Shown here piece after piece: positions 9,840 to 45,585 of a stretch of DNA of 64,000 bases (its first letter is position 1; every line of letters starts with the position of its first letter). The translations under genes were made by a program, and so were the position numbers. The stretch spans positions 59,721 to 123,720 of the forward strand of contig CBDCWN010000002.1 in assembly GCA_965223535.1 (NCBI GenBank). Direction: 5' to 3'. A model generated the notes under the pieces. That model did not search any database, was not told the origin of the DNA, and saw only the letters and a program-made list of their open reading frames with translations. This stretch comes from Nitrospira sp. (GTDB lineage Bacteria; Nitrospirota; Nitrospiria; Nitrospirales; Nitrospiraceae).

Positions 9840-12800
9840 GGGGTAACGGGAGGGAAGCTGCGATGGCACGCAACAGCCCTCCACTTCAGCGACGCAGTAT
9901 AGTTGCGTCCTGGTGACTGGAGTCACTAGGCTGCCCTCAAAAATGACGGGCGTGCCAGATCGAGCGTGAACTGGCCATATGGATTGATGTGCCCATGGAA
10001 CAGCGGCGTCAGGGCCCGATGATCCTCGGCGCTGAGCCGTCCCCAGAGTCCTTCCTGTTCAATCGTGCGCTCGACCAGAATCGTGTTGATCAGCATCAAG
10101 CAGTTTTGCAGTAACTGCAACGAGAGCGTCACCACTTCTTGTTGTTCACGGCTGTTGGTTGCCAACTCGCCTTGGCGACCGTAGCAGATAAAGTCATTCG
10201 TCGCATTCCAGTTTTCCACGACATTCAGCCCTTCGTGCACTTCGCGCTGGGTCTCGCGGGAGGACAGGTACTGGCACAGAAACAGGGTCTTGGCGGCCTT
10301 GCCCAGCTCGGTCAACGCTTTGTAGGTCGGGTGCGTCCGGTTATACGAGTTATAGCGCTTCAGAATCGCGTCCGCGCTGGCCGTGCCCTGCTTGAGGGCC
10401 ACGGTGGCCTTCACCATCTCATCGTATTGCTGTTCGATCCATTCAAACCGGATGGGCCGAGCAAAGGTGCCGGCGAGATGGGGATATTCCGCAGCCGTCC
10501 CAGGGCCGGGCAGATACAGGCGCTCATATTTGATGCGCTTGAGCCGCGGCATGAGGCGCACGGTGCTGAGCAGGTCGCAAAACGCAAAGGCGACCTCTGA
10601 TTGACCGTGACTGTCCACGAAATTCTTCTCGACCCGCATATCCGTGTCGTGGCGCACGAGGCCTTCGATCATGGCCGCCACCTCGGAGTTGGAAAAACTC
10701 TTCAGCTGCGAGTAAATGCAGACGGCGTTGGTCTCCACGTGCCAATAGACCATGACCCCGTAGCCGTTGTACCGGGCTCGCCACTCGGTCATGGGGTTCT
10801 GCTTCCAACTCTCAAATTTGGTGGCATCCGATGCACAACTGCTGGCGCCCTGACCCCAGAGCTGTGGGTTCCGCAACGCCAGGAGTCGATTGACTACAGC
10901 GGCATTGGCGTTGCGCAGCGCCTCCGGCGAGAAGTACATCTTGCGCACATACAGGAGCTCGTCGTAGCTGTAGTGGTGGTTGGCGTTGGCCACCCGCCGG
11001 ATGCCCGTGTTCGTCCCTTCGGCAAACAGATCCAGGATCAATAAGGGACGCAATGCCTCGCGGGAACGCACTTCCTTGGTACCGGAATGCGTAAAGAAGC
11101 GCGTGAAGTCGACCAGCCGATCGGCTTCCACGAACACATCGAGCAAGTCCAAAATTCCGTACTGCGTGGTGATCGCCTCTTTGATGAGGCCAAGACTGTG
11201 CGCTTCAGGCTGTCGCTCCAGCTTGGTGAGCGCCCATAAGCCACGCTCCTCATTCTTATTGGGATGGAAGATGCGCACATGATTCAGTTGTGGCATGGTG
11301 CGGTTGAAGGCGGTTAAGCTCTCCACCAGGCGTGTCTTGAGCGTGCGCACGAACGTCTGTGCATCCACCGGCTTGCCCAACGCTTCGTAGTGGAGCCGGC
11401 GGCGCGGCTCATCACCCCAGTCACGCGGCATATCCTCGCTTGGATTGCGAAAGGCGTAGGATCCTTCGACCCAAATCTCCTTGCATTTCAGCGCCCGCTG
11501 AAGTTTCTGGAGCACGCAGAGTTCGTAATACCGCCGATGGATCTTCCGTTCACCTGCGATCGCGTCACACACCTTCTCTTCCCAGGCTGGGGTGACAACC
11601 CCCTCGAGCGGGATTGTTTCCTCCGCCGGGAAGTATCGATGGGAGCTCTGCACATGTCGTTGAATGGGAGCCAGCGCATCGAGGACGGGCTGAAAGCGAT
11701 TGTCGCTCCGAAAGGTGAGGGTCTCCAGGAGGAGGGGCAGGATGCGCCGGTAGTGACGCGCAAACTTACGCTGCATGATGGCTTGTCGAAGCAGACGCAG
11801 ATTGGGTCCGGTCAGATCAAACTCGGCCACCAGGTGCTGAAACGTTTCCTCCTTCACGCGTGGGAAGAGCACCTCACGAACAATCCCATCCGGAGACTCA
11901 ATGACGGCCTTGGCGACTGTCGACAAAATCTGCAGCTTGCCATCCACGCGTTGGAGATCGGCCAACCACTCGCGGTGAAGCTGCTTCTCTGAGCGCACGT
12001 CGAGGCGGTGGATGAGTTCAATGGCCATGCGGGTCACGTCATCGGTCACTTCCAGGCCTCGCATGTGGAGCACAGACCCCATCAGGGCATACCGGATCTC
12101 GTCGCTGTGCTCGCGCATGTCGCTGGCCTTCTCGTTCATCGCCCGCCGTCGCAAGGTCTGGAGCACTTTCCACGGGACGCGCTCAAACGGATCCGGCGAC
12201 AGCCCCACGGCGCGAATCGCCCGCAGCTTCTCCACCTCGGCTTCAAATTGACCGACCCCTGGTTTCCCGGGATCCGCCTTGATCCGTTCAAACTCGGAGA
12301 TGACGCGTCCCTCAGGCACCACTAAGAGAGCGTCGATGCGGAGGCGCACCTCGGGAGGAATGGCGGCCGCGATGTGCCGTTGGGTATCCTGAAAAAACCC
12401 GCTCAGTGCACTCTGGACGACGCGTTGGAGTTCGCCTTCGGCAGGTAATTCCACCCGGAAAGACCGCAGCCGGTGGCAGGCGCACGCGAACAGGCCGTCC
12501 AGTGTGTGGACCTCATACGCGGCTTTTTGCTGCAACCATTGTTCGAGGTCGTCCTTGTCGAAGGCGTCGCAGGGACGCCATCCCGTATAACGTCGGATCA
12601 ATGACAGATGGTGATCCCGCGTGCGACTCTCCCAGGCATAGGGCTCAGAGCAATCCCACAACAGACCAAGCTGACTGGCGACAAACGTGCGGACTTCCGG
12701 CGGGACCTCCTCCAGCCCGTCGGGGACGTGGCCTAAGTAGTCGAGGGCTTTGAGCAGGAGCGCCATCCCACACCGATTCACATCGGTGCGACATCCGAAA

Positions 12801-13088
12801 ACCAACTCGAGATCGGCAGGAGTCAAGAGAAAGAATTCGACGAGCTCCTCATGGGTATAGGACGCTCGAAAGTGAGGATAGCCCTCGCCCATCGCCGCAC
12901 CAGCCTCCGCATCAACACGGCTTCACGTAGGCAGAACGGGCAATTTTAGGGCGTCATGAGCGGAATAGCTAGATTCAACCCTCCGTCGTGGGAGGAGAGG
13001 GCCAGGGGCAATACGAAATGTGGACGTGTGTGTGAGGCTGATTCGAGCTCGCTATTGCGTGCCATCGCAGCTTCCCTCCCGTTACCCC
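9840..13088 (-). mobile_element. Resolvase-less Tn3-family element A, copy 1 (3249 bp)
   Basis: 38-bp IRs GGGGTAACGGGAGGGAAGCTGCGATGGCACGCAA(C/T)AGC at 9840-9877 and 13051-13088. Only tnpA lies inside. Confidence 0.93.
9926..12892 (-). CDS. tnpA: Tn3-family transposase (element A)
   Basis: 988 aa with DDE motifs CASDATKF, FVDSHGQSE and GLNVVE, and C-terminal HINPYG. Confidence 0.95.
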   Translation of the reverse strand: MGEGYPHFRASYTHEELVEFFLLTPADLELVFGCRTDVNRCGMALLLKALDYLGHVPDGLEEVPPEVRTFVASQLGLLWDCSEPYAWESRTRDHHLSLIRRYTGWRPCDAFDKDDLEQWLQQKAAYEVHTLDGLFACACHRLRSFRVELPAEGELQRVVQSALSGFFQDTQRHIAAAIPPEVRLRIDALLVVPEGRVISEFERIKADPGKPGVGQFEAEVEKLRAIRAVGLSPDPFERVPWKVLQTLRRRAMNEKASDMREHSDEIRYALMGSVLHMRGLEVTDDVTRMAIELIHRLDVRSEKQLHREWLADLQRVDGKLQILSTVAKAVIESPDGIVREVLFPRVKEETFQHLVAEFDLTGPNLRLLRQAIMQRKFARHYRRILPLLLETLTFRSDNRFQPVLDALAPIQRHVQSSHRYFPAEETIPLEGVVTPAWEEKVCDAIAGERKIHRRYYELCVLQKLQRALKCKEIWVEGSYAFRNPSEDMPRDWGDEPRRRLHYEALGKPVDAQTFVRTLKTRLVESLTAFNRTMPQLNHVRIFHPNKNEERGLWALTKLERQPEAHSLGLIKEAITTQYGILDLLDVFVEADRLVDFTRFFTHSGTKEVRSREALRPLLILDLFAEGTNTGIRRVANANHHYSYDELLYVRKMYFSPEALRNANAAVVNRLLALRNPQLWGQGASSCASDATKFESWKQNPMTEWRARYNGYGVMVYWHVETNAVCIYSQLKSFSNSEVAAMIEGLVRHDTDMRVEKNFVDSHGQSEVAFAFCDLLSTVRLMPRLKRIKYERLYLPGPGTAAEYPHLAGTFARPIRFEWIEQQYDEMVKATVALKQGTASADAILKRYNSYNRTHPTYKALTELGKAAKTLFLCQYLSSRETQREVHEGLNVVENWNATNDFICYGRQGELATNSREQQEVVTLSLQLLQNCLMLINTILVERTIEQEGLWGRLSAEDHRALTPLFHGHINPYGQFTLDLARPSFLRAA

Positions 13089-13262
13089 CATGAGAAGCGC
13101 TCCGGCAACCGTGAGGTCTTGTCAGAGGGGAGGCGATCCCAGAAGAGAGGCCGTGGGGTCGGGCCGAGGGAGGGACATTGACTGAAGCGAATTCTGGAGA
13201 GGGGCGAAGAACAAGGGGCGGTGGATACGCAACCGCCCCAGAACATTGCTCATGTCCCTTGT

Positions 13263-13742
13263 CTACTCGACGGATACCACGATCCGACGCGATCGGTCCT
13301 TGGCTTCGGGCGTCCAGGGTATTCGAACAGCCAGCACTCCATGCTTGCAGGCAGCCTCGGTCTTCGAGACATCGACGCCGTCCGGCAAGGCCACACTTCG
13401 ATGAAACGCGGTGTAGCGACGGCCACGGCCTTCCCCGTTGCCATCACGCCATTCACGCTCGTCCTCATAACTGACATGGAGCATACCAGGCCGGACGGTG
13501 ACATTGAGGTGTTTCGGGTCCAGTCCGGGGATGTCGGCACGGAGAAGCACGTGCTCGTCCGTCTCGTCCATCTCGATCCCAGAGCCGCCCCCGGCAAACC
13601 GAGACCATCCCGTCTCCAAGGGCGACATGAGAAACCGATCAAACAGCTGATTGATGTCATCGCGTAACGACAGAACCTCCTGCGTGTCGACCGGTTTCCG
13701 TTTCCACGGAATCATGTCTTTGAGTTTGCTCATGAGCTCCAT
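13263..13742 (-). CDS. Small heat shock protein (Hsp20/alpha-crystallin)
   Basis: Motifs LRADIPG, FHRSVALP and ACKHGVLAVRIP. SD AAGGAGG precedes the ATG at 13742. Confidence 0.88.
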   Translation of the reverse strand: MELMSKLKDMIPWKRKPVDTQEVLSLRDDINQLFDRFLMSPLETGWSRFAGGGSGIEMDETDEHVLLRADIPGLDPKHLNVTVRPGMLHVSYEDEREWRDGNGEGRGRRYTAFHRSVALPDGVDVSKTEAACKHGVLAVRIPWTPEAKDRSRRIVVSVE

Positions 13743-13978
13743 GGCGTCTCCTCCTTTCTTCCAGTTGGTACAGTGGACATTCCCTTCACCGATTTCGATA
13801 AGGCTCCTCACGCGCCGGTCAAGTCCTCGTATGCGACGTTCCACTGGTTCCTCTAGGGTAGACCTCAGGTCACCAGATCTGTCGTGGAAATCGAGGGTGA
13901 TTTCTTGTCACCCTTGGGAATACAGCATGAGCGATTGAGTTTTGGCCGTCCCCACATGAACCTCTCGACACCGGATAT

Positions 13979-14110
13979 TCACCATTTTGTCGATTTCCGG
14001 TCCGTCCGCCACGTCATCCACGCGCTCACCATGAACGCCAGGATGATCAGGCCGAAGACGACCAAGCCCATCACTTCAGTGCGCGGTAACGCGGCAAGTA
14101 ATTCTCTCAT
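13979..14110 (-). CDS. Putative 43-aa single-TM microprotein (MRELLAALPRTEVMGLVVFGLIILAFMVSAWMTWRTDRKSTKW)
   Basis: Translated by hand. GGAG SD, hydrophobic stretch and basic tail. Confidence 0.4.
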   Translation of the reverse strand: MRELLAALPRTEVMGLVVFGLIILAFMVSAWMTWRTDRKSTKW

Positions 14111-14128
14111 CGCGAGGTCTCCCGCTCT

Positions 14129-14398
14129 TCACCGACCTTTTCTGCCACCCGTGCGCATGATGTCGTTGAGGAGGCGATCCCGATGACGCATGATCATCGC
14201 CCGCCGCCTGGGCCGATCGAGCGACCACCAGCGCAGAGGGCGACTAAAGCGAACAGTCGGCGGCGGGATATTTCGTAAGACGGCTGGGTGCTGAAAGTCA
14301 TAGCCTGCAGCCTGTTGTCTGCCAACCGCAGTTGCGGGCTGAACGATGGCGGCATCGAACGTCCCTGCTAGAACTGTACTTGCACTTCTCGGTTCCAT
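14129..14398 (-). CDS. Hypothetical protein (89 aa)
   Basis: ORF with GGAG SD before the ATG at 14398, co-oriented with neighbours. No recognised motif. Confidence 0.35.
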   Translation of the reverse strand: MEPRSASTVLAGTFDAAIVQPATAVGRQQAAGYDFQHPAVLRNIPPPTVRFSRPLRWWSLDRPRRRAMIMRHRDRLLNDIMRTGGRKGR

Positions 14399-14678
14399 GG
14401 CGAATCTCCATCCTCTTGGCACTTCCTCTCTCCAATTGTGGAAGCACAACGCTATCCCGCTACTCAGTCGTGACACTTCACCACCCACAAGAGACCATTC
14501 ACGCGTCTCTCGTTCTTGCGATGGGTGATGGTTCGTGACTGATTAGGGAAGTCATCATGCAGTGTCATCATCCGTCCACGCCTGACGACTCCGCGTGACT
14601 GACAACGCAGGTAATTCCGTTCGAACACAAGTCAAGACCGACAGGACGCTGATTCAGGAGATGGACTGGGCCAATCTC

Positions 14679-14706
14679 TTGACCAAGACAAAACGAGAAT
14701 TATGAT
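14679..14706 (+). promoter_or_regulatory. Sigma70-like promoter upstream of hsp20
   Basis: TTGACC, 16-bp spacer, TATGAT, about 95 bp upstream of the ATG at 14802. Confidence 0.4.
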
Positions 14707-14801
14707 ACTCGTGAACGCAAGAGCACCGCGTATGAAGGCATACCTTACATCCATACGGGGTGGCCCTGCGCATGTGGTCACACCACGAAAGGAGGTTCAT
14801 C

Positions 14802-15251
14802 ATGAATCTGGTACGCTGGGATCCATTTCGGGAGTTGGAAGATATGAGCCATCGGCTCAACCGACTATTAGCCGGAAAAGACGTGAAGAGCCACGACGGA
14901 ACGGACACCATAATAACGGCCGATTGGGTCCCTCCCGTCGACATCAGCGAGACCGATCAGGAATTTCAGGTCAAGGCGGAGCTTCCAGGGATCAAGAAGC
15001 AGGACATCAAGGTCACGTTGGAGGGCGGCATCCTCACGTTGCAAGGTGAGCGACCGGAGGAGCAAGAGGACAAGGGTCGTCGAATTCATCGCGTGGAACG
15101 GTCCTATGGACGGTTCGTCAGAAGTTTTACGCTTCCCGATGTGGTCGACGCAACTAAGGTCAATGCGGAATTCAAAGATGGGGTGCTGACGTTGCGCCTG
15201 CACAAATCACCAGCGGCTGTCCCCAAGGCCATTGAGGTGAAGGTCGCGTAA
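14802..15251 (+). CDS. Small heat shock protein (Hsp20)
   Basis: MNLVRWDPFRELE...DWVPPVDISET...RVERSYGRFVRSFTLP...FKDGVLTLRL. SD AAGGAGG. Confidence 0.95.
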   Translation: MNLVRWDPFRELEDMSHRLNRLLAGKDVKSHDGTDTIITADWVPPVDISETDQEFQVKAELPGIKKQDIKVTLEGGILTLQGERPEEQEDKGRRIHRVERSYGRFVRSFTLPDVVDATKVNAEFKDGVLTLRLHKSPAAVPKAIEVKVA

Positions 15252-15279
15252 CTACCCTCTGCCAACCCTGTCATCGAGG

Positions 15280-15312
15280 AGCAGCCCGTTGTTCGAGAAT
15301 GGACGGGCTGTT
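15280..15312. terminator. GC-rich hairpin between convergent genes
   Basis: AGCAGCCCGT / ACGGGCTGTT stem. No clear U-tract. Confidence 0.3.
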
Positions 15313-15442
15313 CCCCCCTCTCATCGACTCTGGCGACTCAGTCTGCTCGCCACTGTTCTTGTCGGAGTCGAGGTGGTCGTTCTGATGACGGTTGGATTCT
15401 AAGTGGAGCAGCAGCCAAGCTGGTTGCTCATGGCGAGAGTCA

Positions 15443-15610
15443 TCAAGAGGCGTCTCGCCGGGGCTGTCGTGCATCGGGTCCGGCGAACGGATTGCTCGAC
15501 CGTGAGTGCGTGTCGTGATTGCCGAATAGATATATAACCAGGTACGCCATGGCAGTCGCCATGGCTACGACAATCCCTCCCATCGTGAGCGTGGCGATCA
15601 GTTCAGCCAT
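15443..15610 (-). CDS. 55-aa single-TM microprotein
   Basis: MAELIATLTMGGIVVAMATAMAYLVIYLFG... with SD AAGGAG. Confidence 0.55.
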   Translation of the reverse strand: MAELIATLTMGGIVVAMATAMAYLVIYLFGNHDTHSRSSNPFAGPDARQPRRDAS

Positions 15611-16269
15611 ATCTCGTTGCTCCTTGATGGTTGATACAGATCCGCGGAGATGATCTCGACTCCTTAGTTTAGGGTCAACCCCCTGCGTGCGCGTGCGGCG
15701 CATTTGGAGAATCGCCTCCGACAAGCGATCGCGAAGAGGCATGCTCACGGGCGATCTCATTACAGTATCCGTGACAGTTCGCTTTACCATGCGGTGCCGT
15801 AAGGGGAGGTAATAACAGGAAAAAGAAAATCAAGTTGGATAGGAGACGAGGAGGTATCCGGGACGGTGAACAGCACGATCCTCCTCAATCGTCGGCTGAG
15901 AGGCTTATAGAATTGGAGAGAGACTCATGTCCATCGTGTGGTGCACCAGTCGATGCACCCAGCGTAAGGACTGGCACGGATTGTCAAGAATGTCTCAAGC
16001 ACTCAGTGCCTTGTACCTTTTCTCATCTCCCCCTCTTGACTCATCTTATTTTGGAATTACTCGTATTATCAGAATTGACAGACTGGACTGGATGGACGTT
16101 GGTGAAGGGCCCACTGTCTAGCCACCTGTCATAGCGGTGTGCACCTCGGCCCTTCACGCAGTCCTCCCGCTCCAGCGTAACGATTTCTAACAAACTGCTG
16201 ACCCGTGTGGAAGGGTCTCGCCATGACTTTGGCGAGCCCACGCTCGGTCATGGAAGGGAGGTGAACACG

Positions 16270-16446
16270 ATGATGGACATGAGCTCCATGATTGATGCGG
16301 GCCTGGCGCTCGGTGGGGCGATGGCGGTAGTGCTGATGGGAATGGCGATGGTGTCTTCGGACTCCACCACCGTGTCCATGTCCTCCGACGAAATTAGACG
16401 TCAATCCGACGACACCCAGTATCCGCCTCTTCAGGCTGCGGCCTAG
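16270..16446 (+). CDS. 58-aa single-TM microprotein (paralog of 56437-56613)
   Basis: SD context GGAGGTGAACACG-ATGATGGA. Same length and pattern as the ORF at 56437-56613. Confidence 0.7.
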   Translation: MMDMSSMIDAGLALGGAMAVVLMGMAMVSSDSTTVSMSSDEIRRQSDDTQYPPLQAAA

Positions 16447-16488
16447 TTGAGGGCGGTGCGGTTGCCGTACTGAATCCGGGAGGAAACG

Positions 16489-16578
16489 ATGATGACGTAT
16501 CACTGGCAAATGTGGAACGCACAAGTCCTGGGAAGGGCTGATTATTTCTCGTGGCCACATCAGCGGTGGTCGCGATAA
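16489..16578 (+). CDS. Putative 29-aa Trp-rich microprotein (MMTYHWQMWNAQVLGRADYFSWPHQRWSR)
   Basis: Translated by hand. GGAGG SD 5 nt upstream; lies in a tandem gene string. Confidence 0.4.
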   Translation: MMTYHWQMWNAQVLGRADYFSWPHQRWSR

Positions 16579-16646
16579 AGGAACAGGGACATCTTCACGG
16601 GATGTCCCTGGTGCGAGTTGAAGACAGAGGAAAGGAGGGACCGACG

Positions 16647-17321
16647 ATGCCAATCACATTCAGAATGGTAACCATACTCGTGATGCTCTGCCTGGTCCTG
16701 GGATTGGTGGCCACGCCGGGCATCGCCACAGAAGGTGTGTCAACGGACGCCACACTCCCGCGTGCCTTTCAGAACGCTCAGTTCGGGATGACGCTGTCTG
16801 AATTCACAGCGGTCGTCCCTGAGGCGAAGCCAGTGTCCCTCGGAGGGCGTGATCACGCTGACCGGACGGTGGTGGTGCCATCACAAGAACGGCCCCTCCA
16901 CCGCATTGAATATCGTTTCTCCGATCGGCTCCGGGAATTCATCCTTTATTATGTGTATGCCGATGTCCCTGGTGGGTATGCTGGACTGCTCACACAATTA
17001 CGAGAGTCGTATGGGAAGCCCATAAAACAGAATCTGTACGAATATTATACGAAACCCGAAGCCTACTCAGAAAAGAAGACGATCTGGAAGGATCGTGCCA
17101 CGATGGCCACTTTGACGGAGATTCGTAAACTGAATGGTGACCAACGCGAACTGAGCGTGACGATCACCGATCTCACGGGTCAACCGGCTTCGGGGGAAGG
17201 GCAAGCGCGTCACGCACAAGAACGGAGTATCCCGATTCCAGTGCCGGAGGACCGGACTTCGAACGAACAGACGGCGGTGCCGGACCGAGCTGGGGCACAG
17301 ATCAAGCAGGCACGTGGGTGA
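16647..17321 (+). CDS. Exported hypothetical protein (224 aa)
   Basis: SD AAGGAGG and a signal peptide (MPITFRMVTILVMLCLVLGLVATPGIA). Confidence 0.7.
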   Translation: MPITFRMVTILVMLCLVLGLVATPGIATEGVSTDATLPRAFQNAQFGMTLSEFTAVVPEAKPVSLGGRDHADRTVVVPSQERPLHRIEYRFSDRLREFILYYVYADVPGGYAGLLTQLRESYGKPIKQNLYEYYTKPEAYSEKKTIWKDRATMATLTEIRKLNGDQRELSVTITDLTGQPASGEGQARHAQERSIPIPVPEDRTSNEQTAVPDRAGAQIKQARG

Positions 17322-17405
17322 GGGAGTGTGGGGAGAGAAGGACCCTGATTTGGTGAACTCATTGAAGACTACTCGTGGGGTGAGTGCGAAAGGAGGTGGT
17401 CGGCC

Positions 17406-17489
17406 ATGAAAGTGCTCTCTTGGATTCGGGCGCTGGTGGCGACCTGGCTCATCGTGGCGCCGATCATGGTCGCGATCCGAATCCTGTGA
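17406..17489 (+). CDS. Putative 27-aa hydrophobic microprotein (MKVLSWIRALVATWLIVAPIMVAIRIL)
   Basis: Translated by hand. GGAGGT SD. Confidence 0.45.
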   Translation: MKVLSWIRALVATWLIVAPIMVAIRIL

Positions 17490-17578
17490 TCGAGTTATCA
17501 CAGAGCAGATCGTTGAATCCTATCGAAGAATGCGTGAACACGAGCCGATGACGCATAGGAAGGGAGGGGGAAGAAGCA

Positions 17579-17749
17579 ATGAAACATCTACCATGGTTCG
17601 TAGCAGCGGTCGGGGGCTGGCTCATCGCCGTGCCGTTTCTGCTCAACGAGGCCGGGACTGACATGGCAACACAGAATGGTGTCGGGGTGGGTCTGGTGAT
17701 GGTGGTAAGCGCACTCGTGTGGGGATTCTCGAAATGGGTCTGGCAGTGA
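17579..17749 (+). CDS. 56-aa two-TM protein, SPW-repeat-like
   Basis: MKHLPWFVAAVGGWLIAVPFLL...NGVGVGLVMVVSALVWG. SD GGAGG. Confidence 0.55.
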   Translation: MKHLPWFVAAVGGWLIAVPFLLNEAGTDMATQNGVGVGLVMVVSALVWGFSKWVWQ

Positions 17750-18091
17750 TGTATGTACCCAACATACGAGCTAGAAGGGGCGTGGCATGATGGTAGCCAA
17801 GCCCCTCACTAATTGGTGTCGTCACAGGGAATCACAATCCCGACTACGCAGTAGGCAGTGGATGATGCTCGCACGGCGTGTTCGTCCTATCAACACCTGC
17901 CGTGTGGTCGGCCTCCCCATCTCACACAGGACTAGGGGTTTTGCCAGTCCTGATCTGCGGGAGGATCGCGATACTCGATCGATGGTCGTGCTCATTCCAA
18001 ATGAGACGAAGCGGCCGGCATCCTCGGACGGATGCCGGTTCGATCTCTCGATGTGCTCAATGTGTATGTACTGCGTGAAAGGAGGACTCAC

Positions 18092-19045
18092 ATGACGCGT
18101 CTGACTCTCTTAACATGGGCTCTTGCCGTGTCTTTCTTGAGCGTGGGAGTGGTCTTGCCCACGGGTGTCTGTGCCGCCGATGCCCAACAACCTGCAAAAA
18201 AAGCCGAGCCTCAAACCAAGGCCCAGGCATCTCAGAAAGGCGAGACTCAATCCAAAGCCTCCCAATCGGTGCAGCCAGAGGTTGACAAACAAACGGCGGA
18301 TGCCGCCACCGAAAAACGAAAGAAACTACTAGCTGAGGCGACGGCCGCCCTCGATGAATCCAAGAAGGCGCTCAAGGCGTTGGACGAGAACAAACCGGAC
18401 CGCGCGTTGGCGGCCCTGGCCGCGGTGACGGGGAAACTCGAAGTCATCGTGGCGCGGGAACCTGCCCTGGCGTTGGCCCCTGTGGATGTCCAGGTTGTGA
18501 CGGAGGACGTACTGGCCAGTCCGGAAACCATCAAGACGACCATCGAGAAAGCCAAGGAGTATCTCGACGATGGAGACATTCAAAAGGCCCGTCCGTTGGT
18601 GGCGTCGCTGTCCAGCGAAATTCAATATCGGATCATCAATATTCCGCTGGCCACCTATCCGGATGCGATCAAAGCCATTACGCCCTTAATTGACGACGGG
18701 AAGATCAAGGAGGCGAAGACCGCGTTGCAGGCAGCCCTCAATACTCTGGTGGTGACAACCGAAGTGGTCCAGCTACCTAAGCTGCGAACAGAACAGTTAC
18801 TGAAACATGCACAGGAACTTGCGGAAAAGCAGGATCGGAGCAGCACCGAAAATACGGAATTGGCTGATATTCTTCACGCCGCGCGCAAGCAACTGGAACG
18901 AGGCGAGGTGCTGGGGTATGGCAATAAGGAGGCCTATCAACCTCTCTATGAGCAGCTCGATGAGTTGGAGAAAAAATCCTCCGGCGGCAAAAGTGGCAAG
19001 GGGTGGTTCGACAAGATCAAGAAACAGCTTTCGGAGCTGTTCTAA
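18092..19045 (+). CDS. yfdX: YfdX-family periplasmic protein
   Basis: Signal peptide and helical pattern ALKALDENKPDRALAALAAVTGKLE...IPLATYPDAIK...ALQAALNTLV. SD AAGGAGG. Confidence 0.75.
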   Translation: MTRLTLLTWALAVSFLSVGVVLPTGVCAADAQQPAKKAEPQTKAQASQKGETQSKASQSVQPEVDKQTADAATEKRKKLLAEATAALDESKKALKALDENKPDRALAALAAVTGKLEVIVAREPALALAPVDVQVVTEDVLASPETIKTTIEKAKEYLDDGDIQKARPLVASLSSEIQYRIINIPLATYPDAIKAITPLIDDGKIKEAKTALQAALNTLVVTTEVVQLPKLRTEQLLKHAQELAEKQDRSSTENTELADILHAARKQLERGEVLGYGNKEAYQPLYEQLDELEKKSSGGKSGKGWFDKIKKQLSELF

Positions 19046-21268: not shown

Positions 21269-21355
21269 CCGAAGGAGGTTCACCGGTATCTTCGCTATCG
21301 TACGCGTGTCAACACTCGCTGATATCATCGACTGAACAGCCGGAACCGAAGGGCT

Positions 21356-22288: not shown

Positions 22289-22300
22289 GGAGGTTCTGTC

Positions 22301-22618: not shown

Positions 22619-22622
22619 GCCA

Positions 22623-26884: not shown

Positions 26885-26984
26885 GCCTGTGGCACCTTAT
26901 CACAGCGTCAGATCCGTTGGGCCTTCTATAGCTAAGCCCACTATTACCGATAGACATGGAGGTCGATTTGAGTGATCATGGGGC

Positions 26985-30553: not shown

Positions 30554-30574
30554 CCAGATAATCGGAGCGAACCT

Positions 30575-34305: not shown

Positions 34306-34307
34306 GC

Positions 34308-35528: not shown

Positions 35529-36473
35529 ATGACGTGGGTTCTGTCGATGAGATACGGAGGCGTCGTAGGCTGGCTGCTGACCCTGACCGCGCTGACGGTG
35601 AGCCAGGTCAGTGCAGAAGAAGCGTCGGAGAAGACGGTCAGTGCGGTCATTGATTGCCGATACGAGCAGAGCGATGGCGGCACTCGTCAGTCAGCATTCC
35701 CGAAGGACGACGTGTTCCGGCCCTTACTCGCCGATCCGAAGCAACCGCAATTCTTTGCCAGCTGGCAGGCAACCCGTGTGAGGACCAATCAAACGTCAGC
35801 CAATATCGGATCGGTGGGGTTCGGTGAGAACTTCGGCTTCTACACGAGGCGAGAGGGGTGTAACGGCTGGCAGGTCGGGATCCTGGCGGGTGTCTTTGCG
35901 CAGTTTAATCTCGATGCGCCGTCAAAGGATCTGATCAACGCCGATTATGTGGTGGGCATACCGGTATCCTGGCGATCCGGAGGATGGTCGACGAGAGTCA
36001 GGCTTTATCACCAGAGCAGCCATCTCGGCGACGAGTTTCTGCTGGGCCGGCCAGGATTTGACCGGGTGAACCTCAGTTTTGAGGAGATCGAAGCCATCGT
36101 GTCGTACGACAATCGATGGGCGAGGCTGTATGCGGGTGGAGGGCATTTGATTCATCGAGAACCAGACTCGCTCGACCGGAATCGAGTGCAGTGGGGATTT
36201 GAACTCCGAGGCCCGGCGATGCCATCGCCGATCCTGGGAAGCATGGTTGAAGGTCTGTTCATCACGCCCATCCTCGGCGCAGACTTCAAGTCTTTCGAGG
36301 AATTGCACTGGATTATCAACACGAATGTCATCGGCGGACTCGAATGGTCGATGGAAGGATCGACCCGCCGGTTTCGGGTCTTGGTGAACTACTATCACGG
36401 CTTCAATCCGTACGGGCAGTTCTTTGCGCAGAAAATTGAGACCATCGGGTTCGGGCTGTATCTCGCACTCTAA
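35529..36473 (+). CDS. DUF1207-like exported/outer-membrane protein
   Basis: Signal peptide, FRPLLADPKQP, LINADYVVG, RLYHQSSHLGDE and a terminal aromatic pattern GFGLYLAL. Confidence 0.7.
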   Translation: MTWVLSMRYGGVVGWLLTLTALTVSQVSAEEASEKTVSAVIDCRYEQSDGGTRQSAFPKDDVFRPLLADPKQPQFFASWQATRVRTNQTSANIGSVGFGENFGFYTRREGCNGWQVGILAGVFAQFNLDAPSKDLINADYVVGIPVSWRSGGWSTRVRLYHQSSHLGDEFLLGRPGFDRVNLSFEEIEAIVSYDNRWARLYAGGGHLIHREPDSLDRNRVQWGFELRGPAMPSPILGSMVEGLFITPILGADFKSFEELHWIINTNVIGGLEWSMEGSTRRFRVLVNYYHGFNPYGQFFAQKIETIGFGLYLAL

Positions 36474-36501
36474 CTGGGGGTGCGATGCCGAAGACGACGG
36501 C

Positions 36502-38583
36502 ATGGACACAAAGATTGTCGGAACAGACGTGGACCGATGGGCGGCACAAGAAGGGACGCCATCACCGTTGGGGGTGACGTGGGTGGAAGCAGAGCAGGCG
36601 TTCAACTTTGCGCTCTACTCCAAACATGCCACAGGGGTGACCTTGGTACTCTATGCCGCGAATGATATCGTAACGCCGGTCATCCAGTACCACTTCAACT
36701 ATCTCATCAATAAGTCCGGCAGAATCTGGCACTGTCGGATCCCAGCCTCCCAGTTACGTAACGTGGCGTACTATGCGTATCAGGTGGAAGGGCCGTTTAA
36801 CCCCTCAGAGGGCCATCGTTTCGATCCGGGCAAGGTGCTTCTTGATCCTTATGCCAAAGGGGTCTTCTTTCCCATGGGGTTTGATCGGGAGGCGGCTCGA
36901 GAGTCGGGCGCAAATGCGGGTCGTGCCCCACTTGGAGTCATTCCTCACGATCACAAGCGATTCGAATGGGGGCAAGACAGGCCGCCGCGTCATACGCACG
37001 ACCTGGTGATCTACGAGATGCATGTCAAGGGATTCACCAGGAGGCCCAACTCAGGCATCTCTGATGAAAGACGCGGGACCTATGCTGGGGTAATCGAGAA
37101 GGTTCCCTATCTCACCGAGCTTGGCGTGACAGCCGTCGAACTACTTCCCGTCCACCAGCGTGATCCCCAAGAAGGGAACTATTGGGGGTACATGCCGCTC
37201 AATTTCTTCTCGCCCCATCACGAATATGCTAGCGATCCAGCTGTGAGAGAGCAGGTCCAGGAATTTCGTGTCATGGTGAAGGCGCTCCATGAGGCCGGCA
37301 TCGAGGTCCTGCTTGACGTGGCATATAACCACACGACAGAAGGCAATCAAAACGGCCCCACTTACTCGTACCGAGGGCTCGACAATACGACCTACTATCT
37401 CTTGGAACAGGACCGCCGCTGGTACCGCAACGACACCGGAACCGGCAATGTGATTCACGCCGCGAATCGCTATGTGCGGCGCATGGTCGTGGAGAGCCTG
37501 TTGTATTGGACGGAAGCGATGCAGGTGGACGGATTTCGGTTCGATCTGGCGTCGCTCTTTACCAGAAATGCGGATGGCTCGATCAACTTGGATGATCCTC
37601 CGATCATCGCCGAGATCAGCGGCCTGGCGGAGCTGAAGAGGATTCGGCTCATCGCGGAGGCTTGGGACCTGTCCTCCTATCAACTTGGGCGAAGTTTTCC
37701 AGGACTGAACTGGCTACAGTGGAACGGCAAGTTTCGTGACAATGTCCGCGCGTTTGTGAAGGGAGATCCTGGAACGGTGCCGGCACTCATAACCAGGTTG
37801 TACGGCAGTGACGACCTCTTTCCTGACCAGCTCCTCCATGCGTACCATGCCTATCAAAGCGTCAACTTCGTCACGTGCCACGACGGATTCTGCCTATACG
37901 ATCTGGTCGCCTATAACGACAAACATAATTGGGCCAACGGTCATCAGAATCAAGACGGGCGCGATGACAACTATAGCTGGAACTGTGGGTGGGAGGGCGA
38001 CCAGGAGGTGCCGGCTGACGTCATGGCCTTGCGCAAGCAGCAGATCAAGAATTTCTGCTGCCTTCTCTTCCTGTCCAACGGCACGCCGATGTTCTGCGCC
38101 GGTGATGAGTTCATGAACACACAGGGAGGGAACAACAATCCCTACAACCAAGATAATGAGACGACGTGGTTGGACTGGAGTCTGCTGGAACGCAATCAGG
38201 ACATCTTTCGGTTTTTCACACGCATGATCGCGTTTCGCAAAGCGCACCCGTCCCTCGGGCGCAGCCGCTTCTGGCGCGAGGACGTCCATTGGTATGGCGT
38301 GGGGCCGGAAGTCGATCTGTCGCACGACTCACATAGCCTGGCGTTCTTCCTCTCTGGGGCTTCGCAACAGGACGTTGATCTCTACGTGATGATCAACGCC
38401 TATTGGGAGGATCTCTCCTTCACCGTCCAGGAAGGTGCAGCACAGGACTGGTGGCGAGTCATCGATACGAGTCTGCTAAGCCCAGAGGATTTTCGCGAAC
38501 CGGGACAAGAACAAACTGTTCCATCTCTTGACTACAGAGTGAAGGCACGGTCAATCGTGGTTTTGTTGCGGAAAACAATCTGA
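36502..38583 (+). CDS. glgX: Glycogen debranching enzyme/isoamylase (GH13, GlgX)
   Basis: FALYSKHA, IYEMHVKGFT, NYWGY and catalytic DGFRFDL / IAEAWD / TCHDGF. Probable start is the ATG at 36502. Confidence 0.92.
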   Translation: MDTKIVGTDVDRWAAQEGTPSPLGVTWVEAEQAFNFALYSKHATGVTLVLYAANDIVTPVIQYHFNYLINKSGRIWHCRIPASQLRNVAYYAYQVEGPFNPSEGHRFDPGKVLLDPYAKGVFFPMGFDREAARESGANAGRAPLGVIPHDHKRFEWGQDRPPRHTHDLVIYEMHVKGFTRRPNSGISDERRGTYAGVIEKVPYLTELGVTAVELLPVHQRDPQEGNYWGYMPLNFFSPHHEYASDPAVREQVQEFRVMVKALHEAGIEVLLDVAYNHTTEGNQNGPTYSYRGLDNTTYYLLEQDRRWYRNDTGTGNVIHAANRYVRRMVVESLLYWTEAMQVDGFRFDLASLFTRNADGSINLDDPPIIAEISGLAELKRIRLIAEAWDLSSYQLGRSFPGLNWLQWNGKFRDNVRAFVKGDPGTVPALITRLYGSDDLFPDQLLHAYHAYQSVNFVTCHDGFCLYDLVAYNDKHNWANGHQNQDGRDDNYSWNCGWEGDQEVPADVMALRKQQIKNFCCLLFLSNGTPMFCAGDEFMNTQGGNNNPYNQDNETTWLDWSLLERNQDIFRFFTRMIAFRKAHPSLGRSRFWREDVHWYGVGPEVDLSHDSHSLAFFLSGASQQDVDLYVMINAYWEDLSFTVQEGAAQDWWRVIDTSLLSPEDFREPGQEQTVPSLDYRVKARSIVVLLRKTI

Positions 38584-39985: not shown

Positions 39986-40538
39986 GCATCATGCTCGGAT
40001 AAGGCCACGTGTTCATTTTTCGCCACCTTCTTTCCTACGTGAGCAAGTCGAGGAAGAAGCAAGCTCCGATCATCGTCGACATAGTGCCCTTGCAGTGGCG
40101 TGGCATGCTGAGGTCGAACAGAATGTTAAACAAGTCTTCTAGGGGTAGGGCGGGTCGATTTGATATCCCGCAAGAAGAAGGCCATTTGCCGCCAATTTCA
40201 CGATAAACCTGGTTTTTTCGTGGCGCGCTCGGCAACAGATCCGTCCATGGCCAGAATCGACAATGTTCCGGCTCTGGAACGCGTCTGGAACCAGTCAGCA
40301 GGGGCATTCGACGGGGAAACTGCCACGGCCCATCCTCAAAGTGGAAATGTGCGGTCATATTCTCAGAGTTCTAGGGCAGTTGGTCGCAGCTACCCTCCCG
40401 TTACCCCATCAGGTATGTGGCGATCATTGCACTGTCACGACTCGCTTGAGTGATGGTTAAAATCCGTCGAAGGGAACAGTCATGTGCGTGAGAAGCGAGA
40501 GTGGTGTTGTTTGCTCACCTGACTGAAAGGGGACGAAC

Positions 40539-41072
40539 ATGAGAAGAATCAATTGCTTGTTATGCGCAGTTGGGATGAGTTTCTTTCTCGTGTACGGTGT
40601 TGTCACTCTGGCTTTCGGGAAGACCGTCGAGGCTGGAGATTCCAGTGCAAGTTGGCATGGATCTGGCGAGTTCCTGGAACTTGGAAATGGAGATCAGGTT
40701 GTCAATGGGATGGTTAAAGGAGTGCTAATATCGCGGCATAAGGATGGAGGCAAGCTGATTGTACACTCATCCAAAATGACCTGTCCGGTGCGTGTGAAGC
40801 TCAACAGGGGCAAAGATTCTCTAGCGATAGATGGGCTTTGTACGATGATAGCGCATGAAGGCAAAGACATCGCGTACGGCGCTTGGAAGTGCACTGGAAC
40901 GTTGAAAGAATGTGTGGGCGATTTTACGTTTACAGGCGGATCCGGTGGATTCACTGGAATATCAGGAACCACCCCCTTCCAGACCAGTATCGTCTTTGAA
41001 TTACAGGAAGGGAAAATCGGTCAAGCCGTCGGCTATGCGGTCTGGCCGAACCTGGCATATACGTTGCCGTAG
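40539..41072 (+). CDS. Exported beta-rich hypothetical protein (177 aa)
   Basis: Signal peptide, four mature-region Cys and a GDFTFTGGSGGFTGISG motif. Confidence 0.7.
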   Translation: MRRINCLLCAVGMSFFLVYGVVTLAFGKTVEAGDSSASWHGSGEFLELGNGDQVVNGMVKGVLISRHKDGGKLIVHSSKMTCPVRVKLNRGKDSLAIDGLCTMIAHEGKDIAYGAWKCTGTLKECVGDFTFTGGSGGFTGISGTTPFQTSIVFELQEGKIGQAVGYAVWPNLAYTLP

Positions 41073-41156
41073 GGTCATTCCGTGGCACGCGCCGCTCCTC
41101 CTGGCTTGGCGTTCGACATTTGAGGTTAGACTCAAGCCTATCGAAAGGAGTGCCTA

Positions 41157-41999
41157 GGCTCAGGACTCATTAAGTTTTAGCATTCCCTTGGGAAACGAGA
41201 TGCGCTTCACTCTGGCTGGGAGGTGGCCATGAGTGACGTGTTTCTGTTGACCCGTCCGCAGTTGAAAAGGAGCACACCGTACTTCCCGGTCTCGCACGGC
41301 ATTCCGCGAGTGGATGATTTGCGGGTGCTCAGTGGGATCATCTATGTCATCCGGTACGGTCTGCAAGGGAAGGATGCGCCGAAGGCCTATGGGCCGTACA
41401 AGACGCTCTACAACCGGTTTGTGCGCTGGAACTGGGCGGGGATCTTCAACAAGATCTTCCACGAGTTGTCACGGCAGCACGAGACGACCGAGTGCCTGAT
41501 GATCGACGCCACGCATCTGAAAGCCCACCGAACGGCGGCTAGCCTGCTCAAAAAGGGGCGCTACCACGCTGTCTTGGCCGCGCGAAAGGCGGGCTGAATT
41601 CGAAGCTGCACGCCGTGTGCGACAGCACCGGCAAACCGGTGCGGCTGTTGCTGACCGCCGGGCCGACGAGCGATTACACCGGCGCGAGACACCTGCTCGC
41701 CAGTCACCCACGAACACAGCATCTGATCGCCGACCGTGGGTATGACGCCGATTGGTAGGTCGCCGCCTTGAAGAAGAACGGCATCACACCGTGCATCCCG
41801 CCGCGCAACACTCGCAAAAAGAAACGCCGTTACAGCCAACAACTCTACAAGCAACGTCACAAGATTGAGATCATGTTTGGGCGCATCAAGGATTGGCGCC
41901 GTATTGCGATGCGGTACGACCGCTGCGCCCACACGTTCTTCTCGGCCATCTGCATCGCCGCAACCGTCACCTTCTATCTCAAAGAATGAGTCCTGAGCA
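41157..41999 (+). mobile_element. IS5-family (IS427-like) element, inactivated
   Basis: IRs GCTCAGGACTCATT and AATGAGTCCTGAGC with TA duplication in a CTAG site. -1 slip site AAAAAGGGG at 41550-41558. In-frame TAG at 41756 in orfB. Confidence 0.85.
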
Positions 42000-42080
42000 T
42001 AGGGATTCTGGTAGTCCTCAGGGGATGAGAGCGTCGCTAACCTCAGTGGTGATGTGGCCAGGTGTTCGAACGCTCACGTA

Positions 42081-45000
42081 GGGGTAACGGGAGGGAAGCT
42101 GCGATGGCACGCAATAGCGAGCTCGAATCAGCCTCACACACACGTCCACATTTCGTATTGCCCCTGGCCCTCTCCTCCCACGACGGAGGGTTGAATCTAG
42201 CTATTCCGCTCATGACGCCCTAAAATTGCCCGTTCTGCCTACGTGAAGCCGTGTTGATGCGGAGGCTGGTGCGGCGATGGGCGAGGGCTATCCTCACTTT
42301 CGAGCGTCCTATACCCATGAGGAGCTCGTCGAATTCTTTCTCTTGACTCCTGCCGATCTCGAGTTGGTTTTCGGATGTCGCACCGATGTGAATCGGTGTG
42401 GGATGGCGCTCCTGCTCAAAGCCCTCGACTACTTAGGCCACGTCCCCGACGGGCTGGAGGAGGTCCCGCCGGAAGTCCGCACGTTTGTCGCCAGTCAGCT
42501 TGGTCTGTTGTGGGATTGCTCTGAGCCCTATGCCTGGGAGAGTCGCACGCGGGATCACCATCTGTCATTGATCCGACGTTATACGGGATGGCGTCCCTGC
42601 GACGCCTTCGACAAGGACGACCTCGAACAATGGTTGCAGCAAAAAGCCGCGTATGAGGTCCACACACTGGACGGCCTGTTCGCGTGCGCCTGCCACCGGC
42701 TGCGGTCTTTCCGGGTGGAATTACCTGCCGAAGGCGAACTCCAACGCGTCGTCCAGAGTGCACTGAGCGGGTTTTTTCAGGATACCCAACGGCACATCGC
42801 GGCCGCCATTCCTCCCGAGGTGCGCCTCCGCATCGACGCTCTCTTAGTGGTGCCTGAGGGACGCGTCATCTCCGAGTTTGAACGGATCAAGGCGGATCCC
42901 GGGAAACCAGGGGTCGGTCAATTTGAAGCCGAGGTGGAGAAGCTGCGGGCGATTCGCGCCGTGGGGCTGTCGCCGGATCCGTTTGAGCGCGTCCCGTGGA
43001 AAGTGCTCCAGACCTTGCGACGGCGGGCGATGAACGAGAAGGCCAGCGACATGCGCGAGCACAGCGACGAGATCCGGTATGCCCTGATGGGGTCTGTGCT
43101 CCACATGCGAGGCCTGGAAGTGACCGATGACGTGACCCGCATGGCCATTGAACTCATCCACCGCCTCGACGTGCGCTCAGAGAAGCAGCTTCACCGCGAG
43201 TGGTTGGCCGATCTCCAACGCGTGGATGGCAAGCTGCAGATTTTGTCGACAGTCGCCAAGGCCGTCATTGAGTCTCCGGATGGGATTGTTCGTGAGGTGC
43301 TCTTCCCACGCGTGAAGGAGGAAACGTTTCAGCACCTGGTGGCCGAGTTTGATCTGACCGGACCCAATCTGCGTCTGCTTCGACAAGCCATCATGCAGCG
43401 TAAGTTTGCGCGTCACTACCGGCGCATCCTGCCCCTCCTCCTGGAGACCCTCACCTTTCGGAGCGACAATCGCTTTCAGCCCGTCCTCGATGCGCTGGCT
43501 CCCATTCAACGACATGTGCAGAGCTCCCATCGATACTTCCCGGCGGAGGAAACAATCCCGCTCGAGGGGGTTGTCACCCCAGCCTGGGAAGAGAAGGTGT
43601 GTGACGCGATCGCAGGTGAACGGAAGATCCATCGGCGGTATTACGAACTCTGCGTGCTCCAGAAACTTCAGCGGGCGCTGAAATGCAAGGAGATTTGGGT
43701 CGAAGGATCCTACGCCTTTCGCAATCCAAGCGAGGATATGCCGCGTGACTGGGGTGATGAGCCGCGCCGCCGGCTCCACTACGAAGCGTTGGGCAAGCCG
43801 GTGGATGCACAGACGTTCGTGCGCACGCTCAAGACACGCCTGGTGGAGAGCTTAACCGCCTTCAACCGCACCATGCCACAACTGAATCATGTGCGCATCT
43901 TCCATCCCAATAAGAATGAGGAGCGTGGCTTATGGGCGCTCACCAAGCTGGAGCGACAGCCTGAAGCGCACAGTCTTGGCCTCATCAAAGAGGCGATCAC
44001 CACGCAGTACGGAATTTTGGACTTGCTCGATGTGTTCGTGGAAGCCGATCGGCTGGTCGACTTCACGCGCTTCTTTACGCATTCCGGTACCAAGGAAGTG
44101 CGTTCCCGCGAGGCATTGCGTCCCTTATTGATCCTGGATCTGTTTGCCGAAGGGACGAACACGGGCATCCGGCGGGTGGCCAACGCCAACCACCACTACA
44201 GCTACGACGAGCTCCTGTATGTGCGCAAGATGTACTTCTCGCCGGAGGCGCTGCGCAACGCCAATGCCGCTGTAGTCAATCGACTCCTGGCGTTGCGGAA
44301 CCCACAGCTCTGGGGTCAGGGCGCCAGCAGTTGTGCATCGGATGCCACCAAATTTGAGAGTTGGAAGCAGAACCCCATGACCGAGTGGCGAGCCCGGTAC
44401 AACGGCTACGGGGTCATGGTCTATTGGCACGTGGAGACCAACGCCGTCTGCATTTACTCGCAGCTGAAGAGTTTTTCCAACTCCGAGGTGGCGGCCATGA
44501 TCGAAGGCCTCGTGCGCCACGACACGGATATGCGGGTCGAGAAGAATTTCGTGGACAGTCACGGTCAATCAGAGGTCGCCTTTGCGTTTTGCGACCTGCT
44601 CAGCACCGTGCGCCTCATGCCGCGGCTCAAGCGCATCAAATATGAGCGCCTGTATCTGCCCGGCCCTGGGACGGCTGCGGAATATCCCCATCTCGCCGGC
44701 ACCTTTGCTCGGCCCATCCGGTTTGAATGGATCGAACAGCAATACGATGAGATGGTGAAGGCCACCGTGGCCCTCAAGCAGGGCACGGCCAGCGCGGACG
44801 CGATTCTGAAGCGCTATAACTCGTATAACCGGACGCACCCGACCTACAAAGCGTTGACCGAGCTGGGCAAGGCCGCCAAGACCCTGTTTCTGTGCCAGTA
44901 CCTGTCCTCCCGCGAGACCCAGCGCGAAGTGCACGAAGGGCTGAATGTCGTGGAAAACTGGAATGCGACGAATGACTTTATCTGCTACGGTCGCCAAGGC

Positions 45001-45329
45001 GAGTTGGCAACCAACAGCCGTGAACAACAAGAAGTGGTGACGCTCTCGTTGCAGTTACTGCAAAACTGCTTGATGCTGATCAACACGATTCTGGTCGAGC
45101 GCACGATTGAACAGGAAGGACTCTGGGGACGGCTCAGCGCCGAGGATCATCGGGCCCTGACGCCGCTGTTCCATGGGCACATCAATCCATATGGCCAGTT
45201 CACGCTCGATCTGGCACGCCCGTCATTTTTGAGGGCAGCCTAGTGACTCCAGTCACCAGGACGCAACTATACTGCGTCGCTGAAGTGGAGGGCTGTTGCG
45301 TGCCATCGCAGCTTCCCTCCCGTTACCCC
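42081..45329 (+). mobile_element. Resolvase-less Tn3-family element A, copy 2 (3249 bp)
   Basis: Same IRs (42081-42118, 45292-45329), same length and same translated TnpA as copy 1, in opposite orientation. Confidence 0.93.
42277..45243 (+). CDS. tnpA: Tn3-family transposase (element A)
   Basis: 988 aa, translation matches 9926-12892. Confidence 0.95.
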   Translation: MGEGYPHFRASYTHEELVEFFLLTPADLELVFGCRTDVNRCGMALLLKALDYLGHVPDGLEEVPPEVRTFVASQLGLLWDCSEPYAWESRTRDHHLSLIRRYTGWRPCDAFDKDDLEQWLQQKAAYEVHTLDGLFACACHRLRSFRVELPAEGELQRVVQSALSGFFQDTQRHIAAAIPPEVRLRIDALLVVPEGRVISEFERIKADPGKPGVGQFEAEVEKLRAIRAVGLSPDPFERVPWKVLQTLRRRAMNEKASDMREHSDEIRYALMGSVLHMRGLEVTDDVTRMAIELIHRLDVRSEKQLHREWLADLQRVDGKLQILSTVAKAVIESPDGIVREVLFPRVKEETFQHLVAEFDLTGPNLRLLRQAIMQRKFARHYRRILPLLLETLTFRSDNRFQPVLDALAPIQRHVQSSHRYFPAEETIPLEGVVTPAWEEKVCDAIAGERKIHRRYYELCVLQKLQRALKCKEIWVEGSYAFRNPSEDMPRDWGDEPRRRLHYEALGKPVDAQTFVRTLKTRLVESLTAFNRTMPQLNHVRIFHPNKNEERGLWALTKLERQPEAHSLGLIKEAITTQYGILDLLDVFVEADRLVDFTRFFTHSGTKEVRSREALRPLLILDLFAEGTNTGIRRVANANHHYSYDELLYVRKMYFSPEALRNANAAVVNRLLALRNPQLWGQGASSCASDATKFESWKQNPMTEWRARYNGYGVMVYWHVETNAVCIYSQLKSFSNSEVAAMIEGLVRHDTDMRVEKNFVDSHGQSEVAFAFCDLLSTVRLMPRLKRIKYERLYLPGPGTAAEYPHLAGTFARPIRFEWIEQQYDEMVKATVALKQGTASADAILKRYNSYNRTHPTYKALTELGKAAKTLFLCQYLSSRETQREVHEGLNVVENWNATNDFICYGRQGELATNSREQQEVVTLSLQLLQNCLMLINTILVERTIEQEGLWGRLSAEDHRALTPLFHGHINPYGQFTLDLARPSFLRAA

Positions 45330-45585
45330 TCATGATGATGTCATCCTCGCGCAAGCGCCGGGGCCTCCAGCTGGGCGCCTATCTGCCAATGGAGACCTCA
45401 TCGACGCCTGGCCGTTCGCTGCCACTTTTGCTCCTTCCGCTCAGCAAGACTTGACTTCCCGTACGACAGAATTATCACACATCCTAGTTGGCGGAATCGT
45501 CAGGCTCCCATTGGATGATGGCACCGCACGACGATCTCACCGCCAGTAATAGTTTGCTCAATCCACCAACTTCAAGGAGGGACGT

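Follow-up and report, generated by a model that had tools for sequence, protein, structure and literature searches.

Split target-site duplication and a 29-kb inversion between two copies of a Tn3-family insertion sequence on a Nitrospira plasmid

The 64,000-nucleotide stretch of Nitrospira sp. DNA analysed here (contig CBDCWN010000002.1, positions 59,721 to 123,720; hereafter the window) carries a 29-kb inversion bounded by two identical, oppositely oriented copies of a Tn3-family insertion sequence (IS), termed element A. The 5-bp duplication of the target site is split between the two copies, and IS-free relatives retain the uninterrupted site within the ancestral gene order. The inversion was probably made in one step, by intramolecular replicative transposition. 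An earlier sequence-only reading of the window had proposed this event from the flanks of the two copies, and the comparisons below bear out the inversion itself.

The two copies of element A form the sole long inverted repeat pair reported by a repeat search of the window (9840-13095 and 42074-45329). These coordinates include 7 extra bases that reflect tolerant extension of the match and lie outside the element. Exact comparison places the ends at 9840-13088 and 42081-45329, each 3249 bp long, with copy 1 being the reverse complement of copy 2 at 3249 of 3249 bases (100% identity). The size and opposite orientation given by the sequence-only reading are therefore those found by exact comparison. 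The features on which the inversion turns are as follows.

9400-9839: extracytoplasmic function (ECF) sigma-factor gene truncated by copy 1 at 9839, with region 2 alone remaining
9835-9839: TGTTT, outer flank of copy 1; old donor flank, within the truncated ECF sigma-factor gene
9840-13088, minus strand: element A copy 1, Tn3-family IS; the end proximal to the tnpA start is at 13088
9926-12892, minus strand: tnpA of copy 1, the only gene of element A, 988 amino acids (aa)
13089-13093: CATGA, flanking copy 1 on the inside; half of the new 5-bp target-site duplication
13089-42080: inverted segment, 28,992 bp, with a proteostasis block, a second IS, an IS630-family element, an exporter, DUF1207, a glgX-like gene, a solo repeat and an IS5-like element
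13263-13811, minus strand: hsp20, 182 aa
42076-42080: ACGTA, inner flank of copy 2; the other old donor flank
42081-45329, plus strand: second copy of element A; its reverse complement is identical to copy 1 (100%)
42277-45243, plus strand: tnpA of copy 2
45330-45334: TCATG, flanking copy 2 on the outside; the remaining half of the new target-site duplication
45586-45972, plus strand: orf128, a small secreted protein of no family
46357-47886, plus strand: degP

Read directly, the flanks agree with what had been claimed for them. CATGA is the reverse complement of TCATG, with one half of the duplication inside the inverted segment and one outside. The two old flanks do not pair: the reverse complement of ACGTA is TACGT, which does not match TGTTT, and there is no duplication between them. 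A 5-bp match has a chance of 1/1024 per comparison, or ∼0.4% over the about four sensible flank comparisons. TCATG/CATGA is a genuine target-site duplication, because relatives hold the uninterrupted site with one TCATG.

This site is preserved in several relatives. Undoing the inversion of 13089-42080 had been predicted to join the hsp20/yfdX/ftsH/cbpAM/trx block to the block that begins at 45330, and the reverted junction was sought in relatives. It was found, uninterrupted, in two sequencing runs (X12 and X14) and two assembled contigs (L008 and L009). When public-run contigs (Logan) were aligned to window positions 12089-15088, those of X12 (metagenome) and X14 (marine metagenome) reached 13089 from the right and continued not into the IS but into GCCCCGGCGCTTGCGCGAGGATGACATCAT, the reverse complement of 45335-45364. 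The mirror view at 45329 likewise found the hsp20-side flank in X12 and X14. A protein-guided scan of metagenome contigs with orf128 recovered 11 loci. L008 (FKKE01000006.1) and L009 (JACCDV011091494.1) match 116 of 120 positions of a construct that joins the reverse complement of 13089-13148 to 45335-45394, with one TCATG and no IS. A longer construct, the reverse complement of 13089-22909 followed by 45335-46852, aligned by BLAST to L008 as a single 11.3-kb alignment at 93.7% identity, ungapped at the junction and in agreement with the predicted joining of the two blocks; L009 likewise runs end-to-end with the ancestral construct.

The sequence-only reading had named one outcome that would speak against it, namely that the two flanks prove unlinked in relatives. 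Instead, hsp20 and orf128 are adjacent in L008, L009 and five distant loci (L012, L013, L014, L017 and L018), the latter with hsp20 immediately upstream of orf128 at 70-80% nucleotide identity. The two genes point in the same direction in relatives. As IS-free relatives carry one TCATG, the ancestral order is therefore trx-cbpM-cbpA-ftsH-yfdX-...-hsp20 followed by orf128-degP across a single TCATG, with the breakpoints exactly at the IS ends. The 430 bp that separate hsp20 from orf128 hold the target site, which lies 251 bp upstream of orf128 and has a terminator-like hairpin between it and the hsp20 stop codon. The new junction interrupts no coding sequence, and it parts the hsp20...trx block from the orf128-degP block.

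Other searches at this site were less productive. An exact 22-mer of the hsp20-side flank had no match among metagenome contigs; the relatives differ there by one base. The same type of scan against genome contigs gave one hit, where 24 nt match the hsp20-side flank exactly (CATGAGAAGCGCTCCGGCAACCG) at 2761-2784 of L003 (OY282457.1, a Binatia metagenome-assembled genome). This match was rejected as chance, as it lies inside a cas3-like open reading frame (ORF) with no other similarity. Distant-mode blastn with the ancestral junction region returned only an irrelevant degP match.

Element A is a transposase-only, resolvase-less IS of the Tn3 family, because it has a single ∼1000-aa Tn3-type tnpA and no room for a resolvase. 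No credible gene was found in the element besides tnpA, which takes up 2967 of its 3249 bp. TnpA matches the Pfam domains DUF4158 at the N-terminus (E = 5e-120) and DDE_Tnp_Tn3 at the C-terminus (E = 4e-36), and fits the NCBIfam model NF033527 ‘Tn3 family transposase’ with 793 bits against a cutoff of 500. The terminal inverted repeats begin GGGGTAACGG and agree at 34 of the first 35 positions; a 32-mer of the terminus is confined to the four element ends. Domains, terminal repeats (∼38 bp with a GGGG start in the family), 5-bp duplication and missing resolvase are all those of a Tn3-family IS. Tn3-family elements transpose replicatively and generate 5-bp duplications (PMC4471558, PMC5142620), and by its membership in this family element A would be expected to transpose replicatively via a cointegrate. 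Among plasmid-borne Tn3-family transposases in PLSDB, none exceeds about 42% identity to TnpA of element A, and megablast of the element and of the hsp20 flank against the PLSDB plasmids gave no match. Element A appears to be an undescribed member of the family.

How could one such element invert 29 kb? Intramolecular transposition by the trans pathway yields a second inverted copy, an inverted segment and a split, reverse-complement duplication, and the cis pathway yields adjacent deletions (PMC5142620, Fig. 1; PMC4471558). In the window, a single donor copy of A would have been flanked by the truncated sigma-factor gene (TGTTT) on one side and, on the other, by what is now ACGTA at 42076-42080. 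This donor would have attacked the 5-bp TCATG in the hsp20-orf128 spacer on the opposite strand of the same molecule, that is, by the trans pathway. Replication through the strand-transfer intermediate would then duplicate both the IS and the 5-bp target and invert the 29 kb between. The expected product reads sigma'-A-CATGA-inverted segment-ACGTA-A'-TCATG-orf128-degP, where sigma' is the truncated gene. Its old junctions would be sigma'-TGTTT, where copy 1 ends away from the tnpA start, and ACGTA, on the tnpA-proximal side of copy 2. Its new junctions would be CATGA-hsp20, bordering copy 1 on the tnpA-proximal side, and TCATG-orf128, bordering copy 2 on the distal side.

The donor site may have a history of its own. 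Relatives are 100% identical to the window up to 9840, where their sigma-factor gene runs on into ...GAATCAGCTTCTCCCTGCACTG; past the truncation point this continuation reads ...TGTTTGAATCAGCTTCTCCC. The 3′ part of the gene (TGTTTGAATCAGCTTCTCCC) is absent from the 64-kb window. An earlier adjacent deletion likely lies behind the mismatched donor flanks (TGTTT, TACGT).

Inverted repeats can leave the orientation of an assembly ambiguous, and the window could in principle be an artefact in which the true segment has the opposite orientation and the assembler took a wrong path through the identical repeats. Short-read unitigs overlap by 30 nt of the 34-nt identical termini, so flanks cannot be assigned to copies from them and the same junction contigs arise in either orientation. 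The sequence-only reading had itself raised a misjoin as an objection. Two data sets answer it and make an artefact very improbable. A separate 18,985-bp Joint Genome Institute (JGI) contig, L001, is 100% identical to window positions 1-18784 and crosses the whole of copy 1 with the window's flanks, in the order sigma'-A-hsp20. The soil metagenome X1 (about 13x) has IS depth of 13-16x, flank depth of 13-14x and 22.6x on the terminal-repeat unitig. This indicates one copy of A in X1, and the only two flanks attached to it are sigma' and hsp20.

X1 also contains a later rearrangement that depends on the inverted order. Coverage is zero on 40000-42080 and 45330-46960, and a 1426-bp contig joins 26350-26674 to 49979-51080 on the same strand, so that 26675-49978 (23.3 kb) is deleted. 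The lost stretch comprises the right-hand portion of the inverted segment, the second copy of A, orf128, degP and the CopD fusion gene. The deletion starts within one base of the terminus of a second Tn3-family IS, described below; it bears the hallmark of an IS-adjacent deletion of the cis pathway. Since the deleted parts are contiguous and colinear only in the window arrangement, X1 descends from the inverted form, and its 26674/49979 junction fits that order only. The contig across the deletion is covered about half as deeply as those next to it, and two sub-populations may be present in X1. The junction between the IS and hsp20 recurs in X2, X3, X7 and L005 (2014-2025, several studies), so the inverted arrangement is inherited and widespread rather than a one-off. 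L001, the single copy in X1 and the X1 deletion junction together largely rule out an assembly error. As a separate observation, one sample of organism A (X5) covers the hsp20-yfdX part (13060-19500) at 2-4x as against 7-10x elsewhere in the region, and holds a 96% variant on 13131-13844 that diverges left of 13131, which suggests a mixed or recombinant population.

With the order secured, the question becomes whether it arose in one step. That the inversion and the second copy came about together is the part that we infer, since the junctions would be alike if a second copy of A had inserted at TCATG with a direct 5-bp duplication and homologous recombination had then flipped the 29 kb. Such an insertion could follow, for example, from transposition between plasmid copies and subsequent cointegrate resolution. 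This two-step route appears unlikely but deserves serious weight. It predicts the same four junction sequences as the one-step route (by comparison of the copies and reasoning from PMC5142620, Fig. 1), inverted repeats that match perfectly over 3.2 kb are well suited to recombination, and the plasmid (parA-parB-repA) encodes a XerC/D-like recombinase, so cointegrates or dimers would be resolvable. However, it requires three events instead of one and has to work with an IS that lacks a resolvase. No contig or run with a two-step intermediate was seen, and every observation that resolves orientation shows the inverted form, where frequent flipping predicts a mixture. He et al. also hold the one-step route to be likelier for this pattern, which they saw at the flanks of both IS26 and Tn4401, than insertion plus recombination (PMC4471558). 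A third explanation, in which a 35.5-kb unit of A, 29 kb and A inserted whole as a composite transposon between the sigma-factor gene and orf128, takes its appeal from the two IS copies that bracket the cargo, as such structures can move (PMC4471558, discussion). We give it practically no credence: TGTTT and TCATG, which flank the unit on the outside, do not form a duplication, and it is ruled out by the contiguity in relatives of hsp20, inside the unit, with orf128, outside it.

One-step intramolecular replicative transposition is favoured because it needs one event rather than three; because the IS has no resolvase; because cis-type events are found in the same lineage, namely the X1 deletion and a donor copy that lacks a duplication beside a truncated gene; and because, wherever orientation is resolved (in the window, L001 and X1), the arrangement is the direct product. 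Several points weigh against it nonetheless. Tn3-family elements display target immunity, which should disfavour a second copy in the same molecule. Insertion followed by RecA-dependent recombination between the 3.2-kb inverted copies yields the same four junctions, and later flip-flop between these copies would erase the difference between the models. Where a plasmid is present in multiple copies, recombination could resolve an intermolecular cointegrate, so that simple insertion is not implausible. The mismatched flanks of the donor copy require an extra, unobserved earlier event, and no linked donor-state genome, with one A at the sigma site and an empty TCATG, was identified. Finally, the window, L001 and X1 may be non-independent samples of one population.

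The remaining gene map, based on Pfam and NCBIfam matches of the window ORFs, is as follows.

79-519: merR
1979-7771: RND efflux operon
7881-9329: TreT-like glycosyltransferase with a YHS domain
13.1-23.1 kb: proteostasis block with two hsp20, yfdX, ftsH, cbpA, cbpM and trx
14802-15251: second hsp20
18032-19045: yfdX
19379-21268: ftsH
21356-22618: cbpA, cbpM
∼22624-23050: trx
23408-26674, plus strand: second transposase-only Tn3-family IS, 3267 bp; the left edge of the X1 deletion falls at its right end
26927-27830: IS630-family element
28133-35432: OEP/HlyD/ABC exporter
35529-36473: DUF1207
36424-38583: glgX-like gene
∼38.6-40.4 kb: non-coding stretch without long ORFs
40384-40407, minus strand: terminal inverted repeat of A standing alone, matching at 23 of 24 positions
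41148-42008: IS5-like element
48080-49732: CopD/cytochrome c/AhpC fusion
49976-54755, minus strand: ABC genes
54786-59600, minus strand: degP, hsp20 and a further degP-like gene
59909-61003: XerC/D-like recombinase

The second Tn3-family IS is unrelated to element A: its TnpA has 1034 aa and is 26% identical to that of A. It has 38-bp inverted repeats, 95% complementary, that start CGCCTATTAGCC rather than GGGG, and its flanks AACTA/AATTA agree at 4 of 5 positions. An element related to it is inserted after 9337 in runs X9 and X12. Immediately to its right, 26722-26869 preserves a remnant of an element-A-like tnpA, from its 3′ end (residues ∼935-984, 67-75% aa identity), followed by the IS630-family element at 26927-27830. 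The solo terminal repeat at 40384-40407 may be a relic of an older copy of A or of a miniature derivative; no element or transposase homology was found beside it, and to its left lie ∼1.8 kb without long ORFs. A loose end in X5 that joins the IS to 40408 was considered as a new insertion and rejected, as the solo repeat accounts for it.

The genes for protein quality control are multiplied on this plasmid. Two degP paralogues, at 46639-47417 and 55237-56015, lie in inverted orientation with 83% identity over 779 nt, and there are a third degP-like gene (58362-59600) and three hsp20 genes. The trx gene (22624-23050) is of the Trx2 type, with a zinc-finger N-terminus and a WCRPC fold, and is read in three frames that shift near 22785 and 22990, both within G/C runs. 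Over the first shift there is no indel relative to L008, which excludes an assembly error of the window for that shift at least. Exact-protein look-ups of degP, the 182-aa hsp20 and orf128 found none on record. GC skew tracks the coding strand and is uninformative on the inversion.

GC content drops to 46% past ∼61.4 kb, and parA lies in that backbone. Because other contigs with the same ParA (L019) carry parB and a replication initiator, the window derives from a plasmid with parA-parB-repA, on which the 58% GC region is accreted or mobile cargo. Coverage by X1 and high GC both end at ∼61.39 kb, just past the XerC/D-like recombinase; the cargo sits in another context in X1.

These observations have several implications. 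For annotation, they add a new IS and restore the true ancestral hsp20-orf128-degP neighbourhood. Flank logic applied to raw sequence correctly predicted an ancestral gene order, and the case cautions that orientation can be ambiguous in assemblies with inverted repeats. No new mechanistic question is raised. More tentatively, it is possible that two unrelated, resolvase-less Tn3-family IS are now remodelling a proteostasis and metal-resistance region carried on a plasmid of environmental bacteria. On this tentative account, metagenomes would have caught successive states, from the IS-free ancestor (L008, L009, X12, X14) through the 29-kb inversion (window, L001, X2) to the derived 23-kb deletion (X1), and the 35-kb IS-bounded unit created by the inversion might move hsp20-yfdX-ftsH-cbpAM-trx as a composite transposon.

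Among known elements, IS1071 typifies a layout of ∼3.2 kb with one ∼1000-aa Tn3-type transposase, terminal inverted repeats, no resolvase and a 5-bp duplication. Element A resembles this type by description, with inverted repeats of ∼34 bp where those of IS1071 are about 110 bp. The cargo is reminiscent of the tLST (transmissible locus of stress tolerance), also termed the transmissible locus for protein quality control (TLPQC; PMC8290217), with which it shares sHsp20, yfdX, an extra ftsH, trx and degP flanked by mobile elements. The core module of the tLST, however, is dna-shsp20-clpG(K) (PMC8290217), and neither clpG/clpK nor any Clp/AAA+ disaggregase was found among the window ORFs. Because this core is missing, the cargo should not be filed as a tLST. 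Also unlike the tLST, the window has cbpA/cbpM, several degP, a parAB-repA plasmid setting and an RND metal-efflux operon nearby. What it shows is a tLST-like stress module on an environmental plasmid that has been split, reoriented and bracketed by IS copies.

The rearrangement itself has close precedents. Tn4401 in pKPC-727 (PMC4471558, Fig. S6) shares with element A the transposase family, the 5-bp duplication and the inversion mechanism proposed for it, but carries a resolvase and the cargo blaKPC, whereas tnpA is the only gene of element A. This signature has been documented mostly for IS26, of the IS6 family, in clinical plasmids (He et al. 2015, PMC4471558; He et al. 2016, PMC5142620). 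As with element A, identical inverted copies of IS26 bracket an inverted segment, and the target duplication is split into reverse-complement halves, one at each copy. A one-copy ancestor with an intact target can be deduced in both systems, neither encodes a resolvase, and cis adjacent deletions occur in the same lineages. Element A differs from IS26 in belonging to the Tn3 family, in its 5-bp rather than 8-bp duplication and in its length of 3.2 kb, and it resides on an environmental plasmid with stress and metal genes instead of a clinical resistance plasmid. The inversion thus belongs to a well-documented class of event, the intramolecular inversions of IS26 and Tn4401, of which it is an ordinary yet unusually well-supported natural example.

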